Source: a virus. Taken from it: a stretch of 10,833 bases of DNA. A model generated the notes under the pieces. It did not search any database. It saw only the letters and a program-made list of their open reading frames with translations, and had not been told where the DNA came from. The translations under genes were made by a program, and so were the position numbers. Numbering within the stretch: position 1 is the first letter of the stretch; each line of letters begins with the position of its first letter. The DNA lies in IMG/VR virus record IMGVR_UViG_3300027976_000024; one strand, written 5' to 3'. Positions 2,852 to 10,833 of this stretch are shown piece after piece.

Positions 2852-3463
2852 ATGAGCAGTGTATTTGCACGACGAAGATGTCTGGTACTCAATAAAACTT
2901 GGACTCCGGTTGGCACCGTATCTCTGCAAAGAGCAATCATTATGCTGTTTTCAGAATATGGAAACGGCGAGCCAAAGGCTCGTGTTATTGAGCCAGAAAG
3001 CTATCAGACATTTTCATGGAATGAATGGGCGTTACAACAGCCTGTGGAAACAGATGAAGTGATTCAAGGTGCCAATATGGCCTTTAAGGTGCCTGAGATT
3101 ATTCTGTTGACAAGTTATGATCGTCTTCCGCAACCGAAGATTCATTTTTCTCGACGTACTTTGTACAAGAGAGACAATATGCAGTGTCAATACTGTAAAT
3201 GTCGTCCTAAAAGTGAATTTTTGACAATTGACCACGTTAAACCAAAATCAAGGGGTGGAGGAACTACATGGGAAAACTGTGTACTTGCTTGCGTAGAGTG
3301 CAATGCTCGTAAAGCTAACAGAACTCCGTCTGAAGCACGTATGACGTTGCTGAATGAGCCGAAGAAACCACGGGTTCATTTGTTTCGGTACGACTCAATC
3401 AAGCCGGTCAAGTCGTGGGAAGCATTTCTTGGACTTTCCTATTGGTCAGTTAATGAAGAATAA
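2852..3463 (+). CDS. HNH endonuclease (McrA/YisB-like family), 203 aa
   Basis: AAGGAGG SD at 2838-2844. C-terminal HNH/zinc motif QCQYCKCRPKSEFLTIDHVKPKSRGGGTTWENCVLACVECNARKANR. N-terminal LVLNKTWTPVGTVSLQRAIIMLF is typical of this HNH subfamily. Confidence 0.8.
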   Translation: MSSVFARRRCLVLNKTWTPVGTVSLQRAIIMLFSEYGNGEPKARVIEPESYQTFSWNEWALQQPVETDEVIQGANMAFKVPEIILLTSYDRLPQPKIHFSRRTLYKRDNMQCQYCKCRPKSEFLTIDHVKPKSRGGGTTWENCVLACVECNARKANRTPSEARMTLLNEPKKPRVHLFRYDSIKPVKSWEAFLGLSYWSVNEE

Positions 3464-4404: not shown

Positions 4405-5040
4405 ATGAATGTAAATATCCCTGTAATTGAGGCTAAAGTTAGACTCGAATATATGAACCAAAATCTTCCTGAATTTGTAGGTAAGTTTGCTGAATGTCAA
4501 ATTTTTGGGATGGCCTCAATCCCAGGACAGACTCCATTATTTCATTTCCTGTGTGATGATGGCGGCGTTTATTGGAGAATGCCTATTCATGCTTTCTGTT
4601 GGAGAACCGACGCTACAACTCCACTTCTTGAAGATGTAGCTCTGTGGGACTCATTTTCCTATCACGCTTCAGTCTTCACTATTGATATGTTCAAGAACAA
4701 AAGAGTTTCCTATGTGGACCGATCGAAGCATGAACAACAAGGCTGTTATCTGTTTACAATCGATTGGTTTGGAGACAATGGAAAGTCCTATGGATTTTCC
4801 GAAGCACCTGGACAACATAAATGTGGGCACGTTCTGAAACTTGACAACGGTAATTTTGCAATCCAACCCAACAATCGATTGAAGATCTTCGATCCTAATT
4901 TCACAGTTGAAGACGTTTGTTATCCAAGGATGCTGGCGAGAACCTTATATTCATCAGAACAATCTGGGCGATGGCGAACTGCCAATGACGAAAAATATGA
5001 CTATGAGATCCACGATATTAACGGTCGATCCACTACATAA
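4405..5040 (+). CDS. Hypothetical protein, 211 aa (Cys/Trp/His-rich; ...FHFLCDDGGVYWRMPIHAFCW...HKCGHVLKLDNGNF...)
   Basis: ATG 4405 with TAAGGA SD 8 nt upstream. No family recognised. Confidence 0.6.
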   Translation: MNVNIPVIEAKVRLEYMNQNLPEFVGKFAECQIFGMASIPGQTPLFHFLCDDGGVYWRMPIHAFCWRTDATTPLLEDVALWDSFSYHASVFTIDMFKNKRVSYVDRSKHEQQGCYLFTIDWFGDNGKSYGFSEAPGQHKCGHVLKLDNGNFAIQPNNRLKIFDPNFTVEDVCYPRMLARTLYSSEQSGRWRTANDEKYDYEIHDINGRSTT

Positions 5041-5904: not shown

Positions 5905-6885
5905 TCAAATCAACCATTGAACAGGTGATTTTATTATGAAATTGAATGTGCCGTCATCGCATTTTGCATTATTTATTTTATCAATATCAAACAAAGACAT
6001 TTGTTGTGATAAACATGTTTCCAGTTCTGATTCTGTGAATATCAATTTAAGATCTTTTTCTGTAAGAACTTTTGTTATGTTGTCATAGAATTCTTTGAAC
6101 AGTAGACAAGCCAATCCTCTTGAGTGATCTCTTTCTGTAATCCTCTTGGCTGTTGGGTTTTTGATCATCATGCCGTTGCAGTGCAGCATCTTCAATTGAT
6201 CTGGGTTGAGATTATGGATTTTTCTGAGAACTCCATGTTCGAGATCAGGTATGATCTCAAACATATGACTCATTCCTGTTTCATTCATATATCTCAGTAT
6301 TGTCTCGTCCCAAATATACGGCCAAGAATTGTAATTTGTTGATTCTTTGATGATGTCACAGAATTTTTGATTTCTTAATGCAGTGATGGAATAAGAATCA
6401 AACACACTGAACATTTCTTGAACGACTGGAGATTGGTGGTTGTAATAGAAAAAACCACTGTTGAATCCATCAAAACAAAATTTTTCGGAATTGCATTCAA
6501 GTGGCAGTGGATTCTTTAACCAAAAAACATCTGAGTCGCAGTAAATGATTGTCTCATGTGACAAATCGGGTTTTCGAATGTCAAACAATCTCGATAAAAG
6601 TTGGTATCCGACTATGTGTGAATAGTGTTCTTCTAAATGAAAGTTCGTCGGCACAACATCAAATTTTAGTGTTTTTTGAAAGTGCATCCAATCTGAGTTT
6701 GTCCAAGGATCTGTCGATTTATCATAATGTGGAGGATAGTTAGAAATGTTTAACACTTTGATTGGGATGTTAGGATTGACCGATCTGAGTGTTGCTATAG
6801 ACAATAATATTGGGTGAGACATATTTGAATAGGCGGGCTGTTCATTTGGACCAGCCCACCAGTGATAAACAACAGTTGGCATCAT
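5905..6885 (-). CDS. GT-A glycosyltransferase, GT32/Och1-like (DXD sugar-binding region; Gly_transf_sug-type), 326 aa
   Basis: N-terminal VVYHWWAGP, which fits the IHxxWxG pattern. SVNPNIP. DXD block ETIIYCDSDVFWLKNP preceded by HIVGYQLLSRLF. ATG overlaps the upstream stop (ATGA at 6882-6885) and GAGGAAA SD. Confidence 0.6.
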   Translation of the reverse strand: MMPTVVYHWWAGPNEQPAYSNMSHPILLSIATLRSVNPNIPIKVLNISNYPPHYDKSTDPWTNSDWMHFQKTLKFDVVPTNFHLEEHYSHIVGYQLLSRLFDIRKPDLSHETIIYCDSDVFWLKNPLPLECNSEKFCFDGFNSGFFYYNHQSPVVQEMFSVFDSYSITALRNQKFCDIIKESTNYNSWPYIWDETILRYMNETGMSHMFEIIPDLEHGVLRKIHNLNPDQLKMLHCNGMMIKNPTAKRITERDHSRGLACLLFKEFYDNITKVLTEKDLKLIFTESELETCLSQQMSLFDIDKINNAKCDDGTFNFIIKSPVQWLI

Positions 6886-7643
6886 AGTATTTCCTCATTT
6901 CTGTATTTCAGCATATCTTGTCTTAAAATTTGCGGCAATGGTTTGTTCCATTTTTTACAGAGTCTCAATCCATTTTCTATAAATAGTTTTTTTTGATCTT
7001 TTACACCATAAGTGAGAGGCGGATGCCACAGGTGAATTTCTGTTTCTTCTCTGTAAATTGATTTAATTCCATACTTCTCCATTGTGAATGTCATATCTGT
7101 ATCTTCCCATCCATAACCAACATATAATTCGTCCATGCCTCCAGCGTTAATGAAATCAGATTTCATTAACGCTATGTTACCTGACCAAGCATTTTTTGTC
7201 CCAAGTTCATTTGTTGTGCTACGATTGTCCCAAAAAAAATCAATATCTCCGTCAATTATTTTTGAGTCGCTGTATTCAGATTTTAGTTTTTTTGTAGGAC
7301 TTGTTGTAATTTGTATGCCAAATTTAAGTTGGTTCATTACAGAATTAAAGTATTCGGTTGGAAGTATTCTATCGCTATCCAAAATGAAGATTTTTTCATA
7401 TTTTGCTTTTGTGATTCCAAAATTTGTAATACAGCAAATGCTCATCTCTTCAAATCCAAAATTAAAATTCAAATGGGACTTCCAATGTTTTGTTGGTAAA
7501 GGATCTGTTAATTTATTTTGACACAGAGTGATAAGTTCGGAGTTTTCAATGACATCTTTGTGCCACAGATCCATGAACCTTAACATTTGCTTAAGATTGT
7601 CTAATCTTTCTGTGTGAAATTTAATGATAAATGAAGCTGACAT
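6882..7643 (-). CDS. GT-A glycosyltransferase, beta-1,4-galactosyltransferase-like (GT7/GT2 Glyco_transf_7C-type), about 253 aa
   Basis: The beta4GalT-like order SFIIKFHTERLDNL...ELITLCQ...FNFGFEE...KIFILDSDRILP, plus the C-terminal YVGYGWEDTDM (WGxEDxD) motif. The true start is taken as ATG 7643 (MSASFIIKF...) rather than the track's TTG 7706. Confidence 0.55.
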   Translation of the reverse strand: MSASFIIKFHTERLDNLKQMLRFMDLWHKDVIENSELITLCQNKLTDPLPTKHWKSHLNFNFGFEEMSICCITNFGITKAKYEKIFILDSDRILPTEYFNSVMNQLKFGIQITTSPTKKLKSEYSDSKIIDGDIDFFWDNRSTTNELGTKNAWSGNIALMKSDFINAGGMDELYVGYGWEDTDMTFTMEKYGIKSIYREETEIHLWHPPLTYGVKDQKKLFIENGLRLCKKWNKPLPQILRQDMLKYRNEEIL

Positions 7644-7656
7644 TCTATAATTTAGT

Positions 7657-8430
7657 ATGAGAAAAAATCTTTTGATAGCCTGTGTGGGTCCGACATCTTT
7701 ACACAAGCAGTGGATTTGTGGCGACAGAGATTTCGATCTGATGATAGTTCATTATGGCGATGGCGATTCTTATGTCGGTGATGGGGAATATTACATTAAA
7801 GCCAAAGGAACTAAGTTTAACATAATAGGCGATATCTCTCATAAAATTCCTAAAGAATATGAATATATTTTCATTCCTGATGATGATCTTGCTATGTCTT
7901 GTCAAAGTATAAACAGATTGTTTGGGATTGCCAGACAATACGATTTGAAGATTTGTCAGCCATCATTGGTTGGATACTATTCTATTCCTCTGAATTTGCA
8001 TAGTCCCGGATCTATTTTGAGATATACAGATTATGTTGAGATCATTTGTCCTTGCTTTGAGAGGTCTACATTTGAGTCATGCCGATCTACGTTCAATCAC
8101 AACAGTAGTTGCTGGGGCATTGATTTATTGTGGGGCGTGGTTTTGGATCATCCAAAAGACGCTATAGCTGTTATTGATGATGTAATTGCCATTCACACGA
8201 GACCATGTTATCAGGGCGACAATTACTCGAATAACAACATAGACAGCCCACAACTTGATCTAAAGAAGATAATAGAAGAAAATGGTTTGTCTTATCGAAG
8301 AACAGTATACAAAACTGTGGAAAAAGAAGAAGATTACAGTAAGCCATCAGAAACTAGAATTTACCCAAACGTTGATTTAATGTTGCAGTTTTGTAATCAA
8401 CTTGGAAGAAAAAGGTTTGTCGATATTTAA
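7657..8430 (+). CDS. DUF707-like protein (PF05212-type, a plant-associated GT-A-like family), 257 aa
   Basis: DFDLMIVHYGDGD, YEYIFIPDDDLAMS and KICQPSL match my memory of the conserved blocks of DUF707 (DFDLLLFHYDG / YEYIFLWDEDLGV / ISQPAL). The start is only 13 bp from the divergent GT start at 7643. Confidence 0.5.
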   Translation: MRKNLLIACVGPTSLHKQWICGDRDFDLMIVHYGDGDSYVGDGEYYIKAKGTKFNIIGDISHKIPKEYEYIFIPDDDLAMSCQSINRLFGIARQYDLKICQPSLVGYYSIPLNLHSPGSILRYTDYVEIICPCFERSTFESCRSTFNHNSSCWGIDLLWGVVLDHPKDAIAVIDDVIAIHTRPCYQGDNYSNNNIDSPQLDLKKIIEENGLSYRRTVYKTVEKEEDYSKPSETRIYPNVDLMLQFCNQLGRKRFVDI

Positions 8431-8466
8431 ATTCCAGTATCTGGCAAAGTTCCTAACATTGAATCA

Positions 8467-8925
8467 TTAAATTCCTGCTCTTTCAATTTGCTCCTTAATC
8501 TCTCTCAACAAAACTGAAGATTTGTCTGGCTGTACAATTGTTTCTTTTAAAGATCCATAATGAATTTCTAAACATTCTATCAATAGTGTTTTTATTTTAT
8601 TTTTGTCTGGTCCTGAAGGCAAAGAACTTTTGGCATATAATTCTTCTAGTTGTTTTTCTTTATTTTGTGCCCATTCTTTAATTTGGCGGACATCCCATTC
8701 TCCTCTACGGATGCTTTTTAATTGTTCTTTGTGTCTTCTTATATCTAAATCGCATTCCGCTAAGATCTGTTCAGCTTCTAGCAATAATCTAACAACGTGC
8801 ATTGCATATTTTGTGTCATAAGAATTAATTTTAACATTCTCTGCTCTTTTTGATTCATCTATAGCGTTTTTGTAAAGATGATAATAGTGTTCTAATTCTT
8901 TATCGTTCAATTCATTTAATTCCAT
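8467..8925 (-). CDS. Hypothetical alpha-helical protein, 152 aa (…KYAMHVVRLLLEAEQILAECDLDIRRHKEQLKSIRRGEWDVRQIKEWAQNKEKQLEELY…)
   Basis: ATG 8925 overlaps the upstream HEG end by 14 nt. Charged helical composition, and no HEPN Rx4-6H motif found. Confidence 0.5.
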   Translation of the reverse strand: MELNELNDKELEHYYHLYKNAIDESKRAENVKINSYDTKYAMHVVRLLLEAEQILAECDLDIRRHKEQLKSIRRGEWDVRQIKEWAQNKEKQLEELYAKSSLPSGPDKNKIKTLLIECLEIHYGSLKETIVQPDKSSVLLREIKEQIERAGI

Positions 8926-9682
8926 TGTTTTCTACAACCTTTTTGCAAAATTCCACAAATTCATCTGTTGTTAAATTTCTTTTCATTAAATTTATTGTTT
9001 TATGAACCCATTGTAAGTTTTCTTTTACATAACCTAAAGAACTGTTTATTCTGTCTAAAGAAGCTGTTTGTATTTTTGATTGATTAGAAAATGTTAGTTT
9101 AATTCCAGACAATGCACAAGTTCTGTTTTGTTCTAAAAATAAATTCCAACAATATTTTATATCAACTTCAACATTTATATTTCTTGTTTTTGCGTTAGCC
9201 TTTAATCTGGCCCAAAATTGTCCAGATATTTCTTCATATGCAGTTCTTTTTAATTTATCGCCAAATAATTTTCTGTATTTTTTATCTCTATTTTCCCAAA
9301 TGTTTTTACATCTAATTTTATGTTGAAGCAACTTGCTTTGATCTGCAATTGATTTTTTGAAAGGATTGTTATCTCCAGATACGTTTGCATGATTTATTGA
9401 CATTTTTTTACGAGTGTCACTGTTGTGTCTTCTGCCAAAAAAAGGATTATTTTCTCCTGTGAATTTTTTTGACATTAAATTTTTTTGTTGTTCAGAGCAA
9501 GGAGTTCCTTTAGGGCGACCAGATTTTTTATCACTTCTTTTATAGAATCCTTTCGGAATGTGAATTTCGTATTTTTTTAAATAATTAACTATTGTAGTTT
9601 TAGAACAATTGAAAATTTTTTTTAACGATTCACACGATTTATTATCACTAATATGGTCCAACAATTCTTCTTTGTATATCAT
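8912..9682 (-). CDS. Homing-endonuclease-like protein: N-terminal HTH, NUMOD3-like repeats, C-terminal HNH-variant nuclease motif; 256 aa
   Basis: NUMOD3-like GENNPFFGRRHNSDTRKKMS and GDNNPFKKS. C-terminal CALSGIKLTF...ASLDRINSSLGYVKENLQWVHKTINLMKRNLTTDEFVEFCKKV, the D-R-I...N-L-Q-W-V...N pattern of phage free-standing HNH endonucleases. AGGA SD. Very AT-rich. Confidence 0.6.
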   Translation of the reverse strand: MIYKEELLDHISDNKSCESLKKIFNCSKTTIVNYLKKYEIHIPKGFYKRSDKKSGRPKGTPCSEQQKNLMSKKFTGENNPFFGRRHNSDTRKKMSINHANVSGDNNPFKKSIADQSKLLQHKIRCKNIWENRDKKYRKLFGDKLKRTAYEEISGQFWARLKANAKTRNINVEVDIKYCWNLFLEQNRTCALSGIKLTFSNQSKIQTASLDRINSSLGYVKENLQWVHKTINLMKRNLTTDEFVEFCKKVVENNGIK

Positions 9683-9708
9683 TGATTATCCTGACATAAA
9701 TAAAATGG

Positions 9709-10332
9709 TTATGCTTTATTTATGATCAGACCTCTGTTTTTTATTTCTTGTTCTAATTGTTTGAATGATATTTTGTGAGAAATTCCTTTTTCTTGTTCGA
9801 AATTCTTTAGTTTTTGTAATCCTTTAGGTGATTTATTTTCAAGTTTTGCTAATTGCGAATATGCGTATCCTTTAAATTTTGCAAAACATCCTTTGTGCAA
9901 AAACAATTTACGATTTTCTCTTAAAAGATTTCCAGCCTGAGTAATTATTAAAATATGTTCATGAGATGTGAATAACGTGTCTACACATGACGGATTATTT
10001 TCCAACAGTAATTTAAAGAATTTTATGATGTTATAAACACTTACATCATATTCTCTTCCTTTACCACCAAGAGCATCTTTGTCAAAAATATGATGACATT
10101 GAAATTGTTGAAAACAATCAATGTCATCGAATCCATAAATTTTACCATTTAGGTGTGGAAAAATTTCTATTTTTGGCGGTATGCAAACACCGTAGAGATC
10201 AATATCAGAATCTGCTGTTGTGTCTGCGGCCCCATAAGAGACAGATCCTGTAATTGTTAAATAAATTGTATTTTGCACCACCCATGGTGGCGGAGAAATC
10301 AGTTTTTTGTCTTGTAAATCTTTGAGAATCAT
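9709..10332 (-). CDS. Pol-beta-superfamily nucleotidyltransferase, PF10127 (RlaP)-like, 207 aa
   Basis: ITGSVSYGAADTTADSDIDLYGVCIPP is the hG[GS]-x(9-13)-D-h-[DE] NTase signature with the GV...P continuation seen in the PF10127 family. AAGGAAGGG SD upstream of ATG 10332. Confidence 0.55.
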   Translation of the reverse strand: MILKDLQDKKLISPPPWVVQNTIYLTITGSVSYGAADTTADSDIDLYGVCIPPKIEIFPHLNGKIYGFDDIDCFQQFQCHHIFDKDALGGKGREYDVSVYNIIKFFKLLLENNPSCVDTLFTSHEHILIITQAGNLLRENRKLFLHKGCFAKFKGYAYSQLAKLENKSPKGLQKLKNFEQEKGISHKISFKQLEQEIKNRGLIINKA

Positions 10333-10427
10333 TGAATGCCCTTCCTTGGGATTGTTGACACAGGATACCAGAAAAGGTTCATTTGTGAAACATCAAATTA
10401 AAATCTACATAAGCCATGGAATCATTC

Positions 10428-10833
10428 ATGTATGTTTATTTTTCTGATTCAAGCTTAAGGCAGCTTCGTTTATTGGTGCTTAGCGTTATCACAGTCAGGT
10501 GTTTCTATTTAGACTCGTCAATCGTGGTGATTGATTACTCAAGTGACGATCGTTTGGAGCATTTCTCCAAGATGTTCGACTTCAAGATCATCAAAAAAGC
10601 TCCTTGTTATGTTAATAACAAAAATATTGGCGTGAATATGGTTTCCAAGCCAATGGACTGCATGAATGTTGGTCGTCAATTGGGATTGAATGATGTTGTT
10701 GTATTGGATAGTGATGTGTTTTTGTTGAATAGGTTCAAAGATTTGGATTTTTCTAAGTTCTCGATGTTGTTTCAGCAAGGAGGATTAAAGAATAGCGGAA
10801 TATTGTCTTTCTCTATTAATTCAGAGGCCATTC
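10428..10833 (+). CDS. Glycosyltransferase-like protein (GT-A, DXD), 3'-truncated at the window edge; start uncertain
   Basis: Open frame running off the window. IVVIDYSSDDRLEHF (a DDGSxD-like block), then ...NVG..., then VVVLDSDVFLL (a DXD block). First in-frame ATG is 10428, after a stop at 10356, with a weak RBS. The antisense track ORF 10539-10778 is rejected. Confidence 0.45.
   Translation, partial: MYVYFSDSSLRQLRLLVLSVITVRCFYLDSSIVVIDYSSDDRLEHFSKMFDFKIIKKAPCYVNNKNIGVNMVSKPMDCMNVGRQLGLNDVVVLDSDVFLLNRFKDLDFSKFSMLFQQGGLKNSGILSFSINSEAI

Follow-up and report, generated by a model that had tools for sequence, protein, structure and literature searches.

Evidence that a free-standing gene for a homing endonuclease divides a phage RlaP nucleotidyltransferase gene into two conserved halves

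Results and discussion

We analyzed a 10,833-nucleotide (nt) viral sequence, IMG/VR record IMGVR_UViG_3300027976_000024 (the window, by which we mean this whole stretch), in which a homing endonuclease gene (HEG) lies between two other minus-strand open reading frames (ORFs) of 207 and 152 amino acids (aa). Our analysis makes it very probable that the outer ORFs are the N-terminal and C-terminal halves (N half and C half) of one RlaP nucleotidyltransferase gene that has been cut in two, and that the conserved halves are translated separately and reassembled into a two-piece enzyme, as in the split NrdA of phage Aeh1. A first-pass annotation of the same DNA had put forward two hypotheses: that the HEG had split an ancestral two-domain gene, or that the nucleotidyltransferase and the helical protein beside it form a two-gene module on which the HEG travels. 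The first hypothesis is borne out by the colinear matches of the two halves to the PHROG 388 profile, to the Pfam RlaP family and to intact homologues. The features of the locus are listed in Table 1.

Table 1. Positions of the features of the split RlaP locus in the window
Feature	Position	Strand	Remarks
RlaP N half	9709..10332	minus	207 aa; matches to PF10127 and PHROG 388
Free-standing homing endonuclease gene	8912..9682	minus	256 aa
RlaP C half, helical domain	8467..8925	minus	152 aa; matches to PHROG 388 and Pfam RlaP
Spacer from N-half stop to endonuclease start	9683..9708	minus	26 nt; AGGA Shine-Dalgarno at 9689-9692
Endonuclease/C-half overlap	8912..8925	minus	14 nt; C-half ATG (8925) within the endonuclease 3' end
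Intergenic region upstream of the N half	10333..10427	minus	shared with a divergent plus-strand gene starting at ~10428
N-half C-terminal tail, linker part 1	9712..9822	minus	aa 171-207; aligns to the linker of intact long forms
C-half N-terminal head, linker part 2	8860..8925	minus	aa 1-22; start of helix 215-231 of the concatenated model
Hypervariable patch in the C half, codons 60-92	8650..8746	minus	97 nt; covers the conserved KEQLKSIRRGEW
Endonuclease N-terminal three-helix HTH module	9572..9673	minus	aa 4-37; HTH, helix-turn-helix
Endonuclease NUMOD3 region, two NPF repeats	9344..9502	minus	aa 61-113; Pfam NUMOD3 E 2.8e-12
Endonuclease nuclease domain	8927..9301	minus	aa 128-252; HNH (beta-beta-alpha-metal) fold

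Two halves of one RlaP gene

The 207-aa ORF matches positions 35-178 of the 351-position PHROG 388 profile ('nucleotidyltransferase'; E 2e-24), and the 152-aa ORF matches positions 232-343 of the same profile (E 2e-20). On the 249-position Pfam RlaP model (PF10127) the N half aligns at 19-144 (E 7e-11, 42.7 bits, cut-off 23), and the C half, searched alone, aligns colinearly at 124-245 with a score below the cut-off (16.5 bits, E 7e-3). When we joined the two into a single query of 359 aa, 1674 homologues were retrieved, and the top full-length ones all carry PF10127. The best uninterrupted homologues (300-372 aa, at most 54% identity) align colinearly with 99-100% of the concatenated query in one alignment, and the break falls at the position of the HEG. 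Full-length homologues therefore run through both ORFs instead of ending within the 207-aa one, and the 152-aa ORF has its homologues in the same family. The expectation that nucleotidyltransferases of the PF10127 type carry an extra helical region at the C terminus also held, as the 152-aa protein is the RlaP helical domain. Related genomes do contain the uninterrupted version, which we found at all 80 of the best IMG/VR loci; this enzyme-profile scan covered the best-scoring 80 loci only, and split genes are not detectable by it.

Intact RlaP genes come in a short form of ~300 aa and a long form of ~340-400 aa, the latter with an extra segment of ~59 aa (the linker) between '...K.PK' and 'SKR...'. 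The gene in the window is of the long form. Its break lies in the most indel-rich columns of the alignment, at the center of the linker, and because the cut is inside the linker each half ends or begins with one part of it: the N ORF ends with linker part 1 (GLQKLKNFEQEKGISHKISFKQLEQEIKNRGL followed by IINKA), and the C ORF starts with linker part 2 (M followed by ELNELNDKELEHYYHLYKNAI). Nothing is missing at the break, where the only unique residues are about five plus the initiator Met. The splitting hypothesis can thus be refined: the cut is inside a linker specific to the long form, not at a bare domain boundary.

The AlphaFold2 prediction for the concatenated chain (mean pLDDT 90.3, pTM 0.84) combines a beta-rich N part with a C part that is all-helical. 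Its sole weak block is 201-210 (pLDDT 63), within which the junction 207|208 falls; helices 190-199 and 215-231 flank the coil (200-214) that holds the cut. In the N-half tail, helix 172-182 is predicted as well as 190-199, both with pLDDT of ~90. A Foldseek search of the PDB with the model retrieved only distant nucleotidyltransferases (3c18, ANT(4') and HalB; TM 0.23-0.27) and no solved RlaP structure.

The residues of the Pol-beta signature (G29, S30, D43, D45 and D96) are all in the N half, in columns that are invariant in a comparison with 22 long forms, and from its sequence the N half is predicted to be a Pol-beta-type nucleotidyltransferase domain. In the crystal structure of PfRlaP, the substrate cleft lies between a transferase domain at the N terminus and a helical domain at the C terminus, the most conserved residues line this cleft, and the C-terminal helix packs back on the N domain (bioRxiv 10.64898/2025.12.29.696909). 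By analogy, the helical domain in the C half would make up the opposite wall of the cleft. Because the cleft lies between the two domains, the split would separate its two walls.

These results bear directly on the second hypothesis of the first-pass annotation, in which the nucleotidyltransferase and the helical protein are an autonomous toxin/antitoxin-like or anti-defence pair of the MNT-like kind and the endonuclease hitchhikes on it. Known systems do include minimal nucleotidyltransferases paired with a helical partner, and the whole block of three genes is compositionally foreign. However, PADLOC models match none of the three proteins, the 152-aa protein is no separate family but the domain found at the C terminus of single-chain RlaP, and uninterrupted single-chain versions are the norm. 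In addition, where a HEPN motif would be expected the family consensus has R-R-N-K, and there is no conserved Rx4-6H. We consider this hypothesis extremely unlikely, and it has been dropped.

Conservation of the halves

We measured the conservation of the halves on 95 alignment columns, each with an identity of at least 90% across 120 intact homologues. The window halves keep 91 of these 95 positions (54 of 57 in the N half and 37 of 38 in the C half); intact genes keep a mean of 91.0, with a minimum of 80. Among the other split lineages described below (L numbers are our labels for the loci compared), L091 keeps 94, L092 keeps 90, L090 keeps 85 and L093 keeps 74. The catalytic residues (G-S, D43, D45 and D96), which belong to the 95 positions, are retained in the N half of the window gene, as are the basic residues R234, K246, R253, K277, R280 and R281 in the C domain.

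If the insertion had killed the gene, the two ORFs would be decaying remnants and the endonuclease alone would be functional. Free-standing endonuclease insertions can indeed be harmful, the ribosome-binding site of the C half is weak, and L093, with its 74 of 95 positions, is markedly divergent. Against decay, ten lineages, which have drifted apart to 42-62% identity, have both ORFs intact, the window gene matches the intact-gene mean, the start and stop codons at the junction are kept in every lineage, and the changes inside the conserved motif of a hypervariable patch in the C half are all synonymous. Conservation, together with persistence over such deep divergence, argues strongly against pseudogenes, and we regard decay as highly improbable.

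The halves might also have parted ways, the N half alone acting as a minimal nucleotidyltransferase and the C half taking on a separate or regulatory role. All three catalytic aspartates are in the N half, but the PfRlaP cleft is formed between both domains and is lined by the most conserved residues. The basic residues that the C half has retained are conserved across the family, and the halves always co-occur, in order. Such a division of labor is very unlikely, and by analogy with the split NrdA of Aeh1 post-translational reassembly of a two-piece enzyme is the most likely outcome.

The same split in other phages

The gene is split at one alignment position in at least ten lineages: the window, L090, L091, L092, L093, L180, L233, L210, L203 and the truncated L190. 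The last five of these came from scans of IMG/VR and JGI metagenomes with the endonuclease profile. The N halves of split lineages are at most 62% identical to one another, with divergence to 42-62%. In all ten lineages the N half ends in ...R-[RK]-x-[LI] followed by 0-10 aa, and the C half starts with M-x-x-L-x-x-L-x-D-x-x-L. In L090, L091, L092 and L093 the whole arrangement closely resembles that of the window, with an RlaP N half of 202-210 aa, an endonuclease of 250-262 aa and an RlaP C half of 151-159 aa, separated by gaps of 4-35 nt (N half to endonuclease) and joined by overlaps of 11-32 nt (endonuclease and C half). The endonucleases of these four loci are homologous to that of the window (41-56% identity by BLAST). 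For the window, L090 and L091, pairwise identity is similar in all three genes: 49-55% in the N half, 47-56% in the endonuclease and 50-56% in the C half. We found no earlier report of a split RlaP in the literature that we searched.

The endonuclease at the split site is not always the same. In L190 (723-1610) and L233 (1242-2282) the HTH-NUMOD3 part is kept and the nuclease is of the TnsA-like PD-(D/E)xK type (PF08722, E 1e-8 in L190), and L180 (2480-3391) probably has the same combination. In L210 (234 aa) and L203 (183 aa) the HNH-like nuclease is kept and the N-terminal parts are different. Because different endonucleases occupy one split site, the endonuclease must have turned over while the split persisted. 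The split genes are not monophyletic, and long and short forms are interspersed, in a neighbor-joining tree of the RlaP core from 125 homologues, which was built without bootstrap and has unreliable deep branches.

Two side observations concern the TnsA-like variants. L190, L233 and L180 look like cases of nuclease-domain swapping on a constant DNA-targeting module, and the PHROG label 'head closure' (phrog_218) that their nuclease domain receives looks like a misannotation.

The endonuclease gene

The first-pass annotation had identified the middle gene as a free-standing HEG with NUMOD3 and HNH-like parts, and our domain analysis agrees, with the qualification that the HNH motif is atypical. 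In the family alignment the two NPF repeats are invariant, and P80, F81 and H86 and also N106 and P107, all in the NUMOD3 region, are invariant, as is the nuclease core TASLDR...GY...N.QW.HK.IN.MK. The nuclease domain matches the PHROG endonuclease profiles 3322, 1035 and 3118. No Pfam HNH model matches the protein, and a sequence search of the PDB gave nothing significant.

The distribution of the endonuclease is patchy: it is absent from the 80 best IMG/VR RlaP loci, and elsewhere it is found in the middle of the gene, upstream of it or downstream. In each locus it is the gene with the lowest G+C content (GC).

Many phage endonucleases are intron-encoded, and a group I or group II intron, or a pair of split-intein halves, around the HEG would restore a continuous enzyme by splicing. 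Two further observations could be read this way: the NCBIfam model TIGR01453 ('group I intron endonuclease') has a sub-threshold match on the NUMOD3 region (26 bits, cut-off 56), and the N and C halves share one reading frame in the window and in L090. The frames differ in L091, however. A search of 8000-10833 against Rfam at E<=1 found no intron, only a chance small RNA match. The endonuclease ORF fills the insert except for 26 nt (4-35 nt in relatives), which leaves no room for an intron core. No Hint/intein Pfam domain was found at E<=0.1, and the tails are only 37 and 22 aa long. Moreover, the N tail up to its stop codon and the C head from its start codon are homologous to the contiguous linker of intact long forms. 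Splicing is scarcely credible on this evidence. Since the endonuclease has its own ATG, its own ribosome-binding site (AGGA, 6 nt upstream) and a frame other than that of the RlaP halves, and since neither an Rfam intron nor an intein accompanies it and only 26 nt of the insert are outside its ORF, its sequence identifies it as a free-standing gene, outside any intron or intein.

Locus layout and base composition

The packing reported in the first-pass annotation, three minus-strand ORFs with a 26-nt gap and a 14-nt overlap, is exact to the nucleotide, and the order of N half, endonuclease and C half is the same in four near-identical assemblies. A megablast search with the whole window against 50,697 phage records returned no match, and hence no close sequenced relative.

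The N half has the Shine-Dalgarno sequence AAGGAAGGG at 10339-10347, and the overlap between the endonuclease and the C half is a possible site of translational coupling. A promoter-like site is present at 10389..10362 in the intergenic region upstream. However, the promoter scan of the three-gene block found 10 sites where 12 are expected by chance (shuffled sequence); because promoter-like sites are not above chance, we only infer a promoter upstream of the N half. The terminator scan found no terminators in the block.

The block had also been described as more AT-rich than the flanking glycosyltransferase genes. Its GC is 0.292, compared with 0.372 in the remainder of the window, and is lower than that of every one of the 265 windows of equal length (1866 nt) outside the block, for which the minimum is 0.338. 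The endonuclease has the lowest GC of any gene in the window (0.270), with 0.308 for the N half and 0.307 for the C half. At third codon positions, GC (GC3) is 0.18-0.21 in all three genes versus 0.25-0.39 in eight other genes of the window. The adjoining glycosyltransferase and DUF707 genes have GC of 0.324-0.364, so that the contrast with the block is real but moderate. The shared low GC3 is compatible with the suggestion that the block was acquired horizontally as a unit.

A model for expression, reassembly and spread

Our model for the locus starts with co-transcription of the three genes from upstream of 10332. Each of the first two genes, the N half and the endonuclease, would be translated from its own ribosome-binding site, and the C half, whose ATG is inside the last codons of the endonuclease gene, would be translated by coupling or re-initiation. 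The two polypeptides would then re-associate non-covalently, aided by the linker tails and by the packing of the C-terminal helix on the N domain. The reassembled enzyme would add one or two nucleotides to damaged RNA 3' ends, as the bacterial enzyme does: bacterial RlaP adds one or two nucleotides to an RNA 3'-OH, prefers damaged RNA and helps repaired tRNA to function (bioRxiv 10.64898/2025.12.29.696909). The endonuclease would spread by cutting endonuclease-free RlaP alleles of co-infecting phages, where repair would then copy it in. RlaP would tolerate being cut because this is phenotypically near-neutral.

Several observations weigh against this reading. The AlphaFold2 model is of a single chain and was built on an alignment of intact genes, so it speaks to the loop position of the break and not to assembly from two chains. 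The Shine-Dalgarno sequence of the C half is weak and distant (AAAGG, 12 nt upstream), and we therefore infer the expression of this half. L093 falls below every intact gene sampled in the number of conserved positions that it keeps. No endonuclease-free allele above 73% core identity was found. In the endonuclease, the canonical first HNH histidine is replaced by an invariant D210-R211; for this reason, and because Pfam HNH models fail to match, we class it as an HNH-fold protein but not a canonical HNH member, with predicted cleavage activity. In the HNH restriction enzyme PacI, to which the window endonuclease is 18% identical, a residue other than histidine starts cleavage.

The last such observation is that the window contains no RNA-repair genes near RlaP, but glycosyltransferase genes and a DUF707 gene instead. 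The proposed role in RNA repair therefore rests on family membership and on related loci. For example, RlaP has an RNA ligase and a metallophosphatase as neighbors in L090 (2380-3069, 5340-6386), a T4 Rnl1-type ligase and an AAA_33 kinase-like gene in L096 (5149-6765), Thg1 and RNase T in L092 (478-1299, 5458-6336), and a peptidyl-tRNA hydrolase and a release factor in L087 (1-91, 2232-2930). Judged from sequence and gene context, a role in RNA or tRNA end repair is the best suggestion for the window enzyme.

RlaP genes as endonuclease targets

We examined nine full-length relatives of the window endonuclease, eight of which are in or adjoin an RlaP gene: five are in the middle of RlaP, two are directly upstream of an intact short-form RlaP (L087 and L094), and one is directly downstream (L096). 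The ninth, L098, is located elsewhere and not by RlaP. Of the relatives that share the nuclease domain only, 5 of 150 are near RlaP. The full-length endonuclease family is thus tied to RlaP.

Other endonucleases are found next to RlaP as well. A LAGLIDADG gene (L005, 10890-11873) is downstream of the closest intact RlaP allele, and a Seg-like GIY-YIG gene (L086, 1834-2532) is upstream of RlaP in Rhizobium phage RHph_I1_18. In T4, mobD (L095, 18430-19209) is directly upstream of nrdC.11, with a 17-nt overlap, a layout like that of L087 and L094. NrdC.11 of T4 is an RlaP (bioRxiv 10.64898/2025.12.29.696909); it is a distant homologue of the window enzyme (hhalign probability 92%), and its gene is not split. 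We considered T4 MobD as a possible homologue of the window endonuclease and rejected it (BLAST E 0.69, hhalign probability 0.1%). Endonucleases in general seem to use RlaP as a landing pad, with recurrent visits by at least four unrelated families: that of the window, T4 MobD, Seg-like GIY-YIG and LAGLIDADG.

Comparison with known split genes

To our knowledge there are very few experimental cases in which a free-standing endonuclease has caused the fission of an enzyme gene with neither intein nor intron, and the reference among them is Aeh1 NrdA. The Aeh1 NrdA split by mobE is fully active, the tails at the break are essential for this (Crona et al. 2011, PMC3045599), and mobE overlaps nrdA-b (PMC3045599). 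The window locus resembles nrdA-a/mobE/nrdA-b in that a free-standing HNH-type endonuclease gene lies between colinear same-strand halves of one enzyme, overlaps the downstream half and forms a dip in GC, with no intron or intein. In both systems each half has a tail at the break and the active-site elements are divided between two polypeptides.

There are also clear differences. The host gene here is an RlaP nucleotidyltransferase, not a ribonucleotide reductase, and the endonuclease belongs to another family, in which the nuclease follows the HTH and NUMOD3 parts at the C terminus. The tails in Aeh1 are unique and were created by the insertion, whereas those described here are homologous to the linker of intact long forms. 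The Aeh1 split occurs in one phage; the RlaP split, whose pieces are predicted to be functional, recurs in at least ten lineages that are divergent and do not all have the same endonuclease at the site. Split RlaP is a new case of a known kind of gene fission, and one that is far more widespread and long-lived than the Aeh1 split. The gene for nicotinamide phosphoribosyltransferase in phage CB7 is another phage gene split by an endonuclease, and examples are accumulating.

The fractured genes of Dassa et al. (2009, PMC2677866) differ in that their products are religated by split-intein halves, while no intein is present here. Their hosts are enzymes of DNA synthesis and repair (PMC2677866), where here the host is RlaP. 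Some fractured-gene endonucleases have tandem NUMOD3 N-terminal to a PD-(D/E)xK-type nuclease (PMC2677866), an arrangement that the TnsA-like variants in L190 and L233 resemble. As for RlaP itself, the window enzyme shares the Pfam family and three catalytic aspartates with PfRlaP and PaRlaP of Pseudomonas and is predicted to have their two-domain plan. The Pseudomonas proteins are single chains encoded in RtcB/RtcA operons, unlike the window enzyme, which has two chains, is phage-encoded next to glycosyltransferase genes and has an activity predicted from its sequence.

The split lineages form a natural series for asking what lets proteins tolerate cutting and how tails help reassembly, and they provide a ready-made split site for engineering RlaP-type enzymes. 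They also matter for annotation, because 'hypothetical helical proteins' of 150 aa downstream of such endonucleases are RlaP C domains.

History of the linker

We compared core identities over 296 columns, excluding the linker. The core of the window gene is 73% identical to that of an intact short-form gene, P0001, and only 42-54% identical to those of other split genes; similarly, the L091 core is 75% identical to that of the short-form P0100. Several close pairs of a long and a short form are seen in the core tree. The interspersion of the two forms and their close pairs point to repeated gain or loss of the linker.

Linker identity among split genes averages 41%, versus ~25% predicted from intact long-form pairs at equal core divergence, and it is above expectation in all ten split-gene pairs, although these pairs are not independent and the linker alignment is uncertain. 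The segment directly after the linker in the window gene is also closer to other split genes than to P0001. Two readings of these sequence comparisons come to mind: homing may carry the linker along with the endonuclease as one cassette, or constraint may be tighter on tails that have to keep two chains joined. The low GC3 of the halves, and that of the RlaP-LAGLIDADG pair in L005 (0.318 and 0.308 against 0.409 for the locus), fits lateral movement of the entire RlaP gene with its endonuclease.

The first of the two readings can be extended to a mobile cassette consisting of linker part 1, a stop codon, the endonuclease, a start codon and linker part 2. On entering a short-form RlaP by homing, this cassette would both split the gene and provide two helical tails for re-association. 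If the endonuclease were later lost, the tails would become joined in frame, so that the ~59-aa insertion of the long form would be a scar, and the hypervariable center of the scar would be the old insertion point. The 97-nt patch over the KEQLKSIRRGEW codons would mark the cleavage or immunity site. If this were true, selfish endonucleases would be a source of new protein segments. We consider the whole scheme of cassette and scar speculative and rather unlikely.

A hypervariable patch in the C half

Over 10.8 kb the window differs little from contig L002 (99.78% identity), yet 21 of their 23 substitutions are inside the patch at 8650-8746, which exists as two haplotypes in the population. 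Three other assemblies end exactly at 8747, as is expected of an assembly bubble between co-existing haplotypes. KEQLKSIRRGEW is the most conserved C-domain motif of the family, and the synonymous changes mentioned above are those inside it; seven codons flanking it in the patch have amino-acid changes. The patch is 166-262 nt downstream of the endonuclease stop codon. Among the loci compared we found no donor for the 97 nt, both haplotypes being 82-84% identical to L005. We considered a diversity-generating retroelement as the cause and rejected it, since bases other than adenine have changed too. Plausible origins would be a short gene-conversion tract and variation at the endonuclease cleavage or immunity site. 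No second hypervariable patch was seen in the strain variants L087/L088/L089 and L096/L097, whose loci are nearly invariant and hence uninformative.

Other features of the window

A second, canonical HNH endonuclease gene of 203 aa is encoded on the plus strand at 2852-3463 (PF01844, E 3e-14; phrog_16726), and HNH/HNH_5 genes of ~200-230 aa are also present within a few kb of RlaP in L087 and L091. The plus-strand gene at 4405-5040 (211 aa) matches phrog_3704 'ferredoxin' (E 7e-45) and has no Pfam domain; the annotation looks doubtful.

Next to the RlaP block is a large sugar-modification cluster. In the window (5905-8430) it contains two glycosyltransferase-like genes and the DUF707 gene, and the ORFs at 6882-7706 (minus) and 7657-8430 (plus) overlap head to head by 50 nt. 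Its upstream part, which lies beyond the right end of the window in L001 (309-8346), encodes WbqC, a hexapeptide transferase, a MetW-type methyltransferase, PhyH and TauD dioxygenases, a PLOD-type glycosyltransferase and a DegT aminotransferase.

Finally, 1595-1629 is a perfect 35-nt palindrome, AAAAAAAGGGAGCGACAATTGTCGCTCCCTTTTTTT, that forms a GC-rich hairpin between A7 and T7 and is a textbook bidirectional intrinsic terminator. The single indel between the window and L002 (position 1601) is in its A run.

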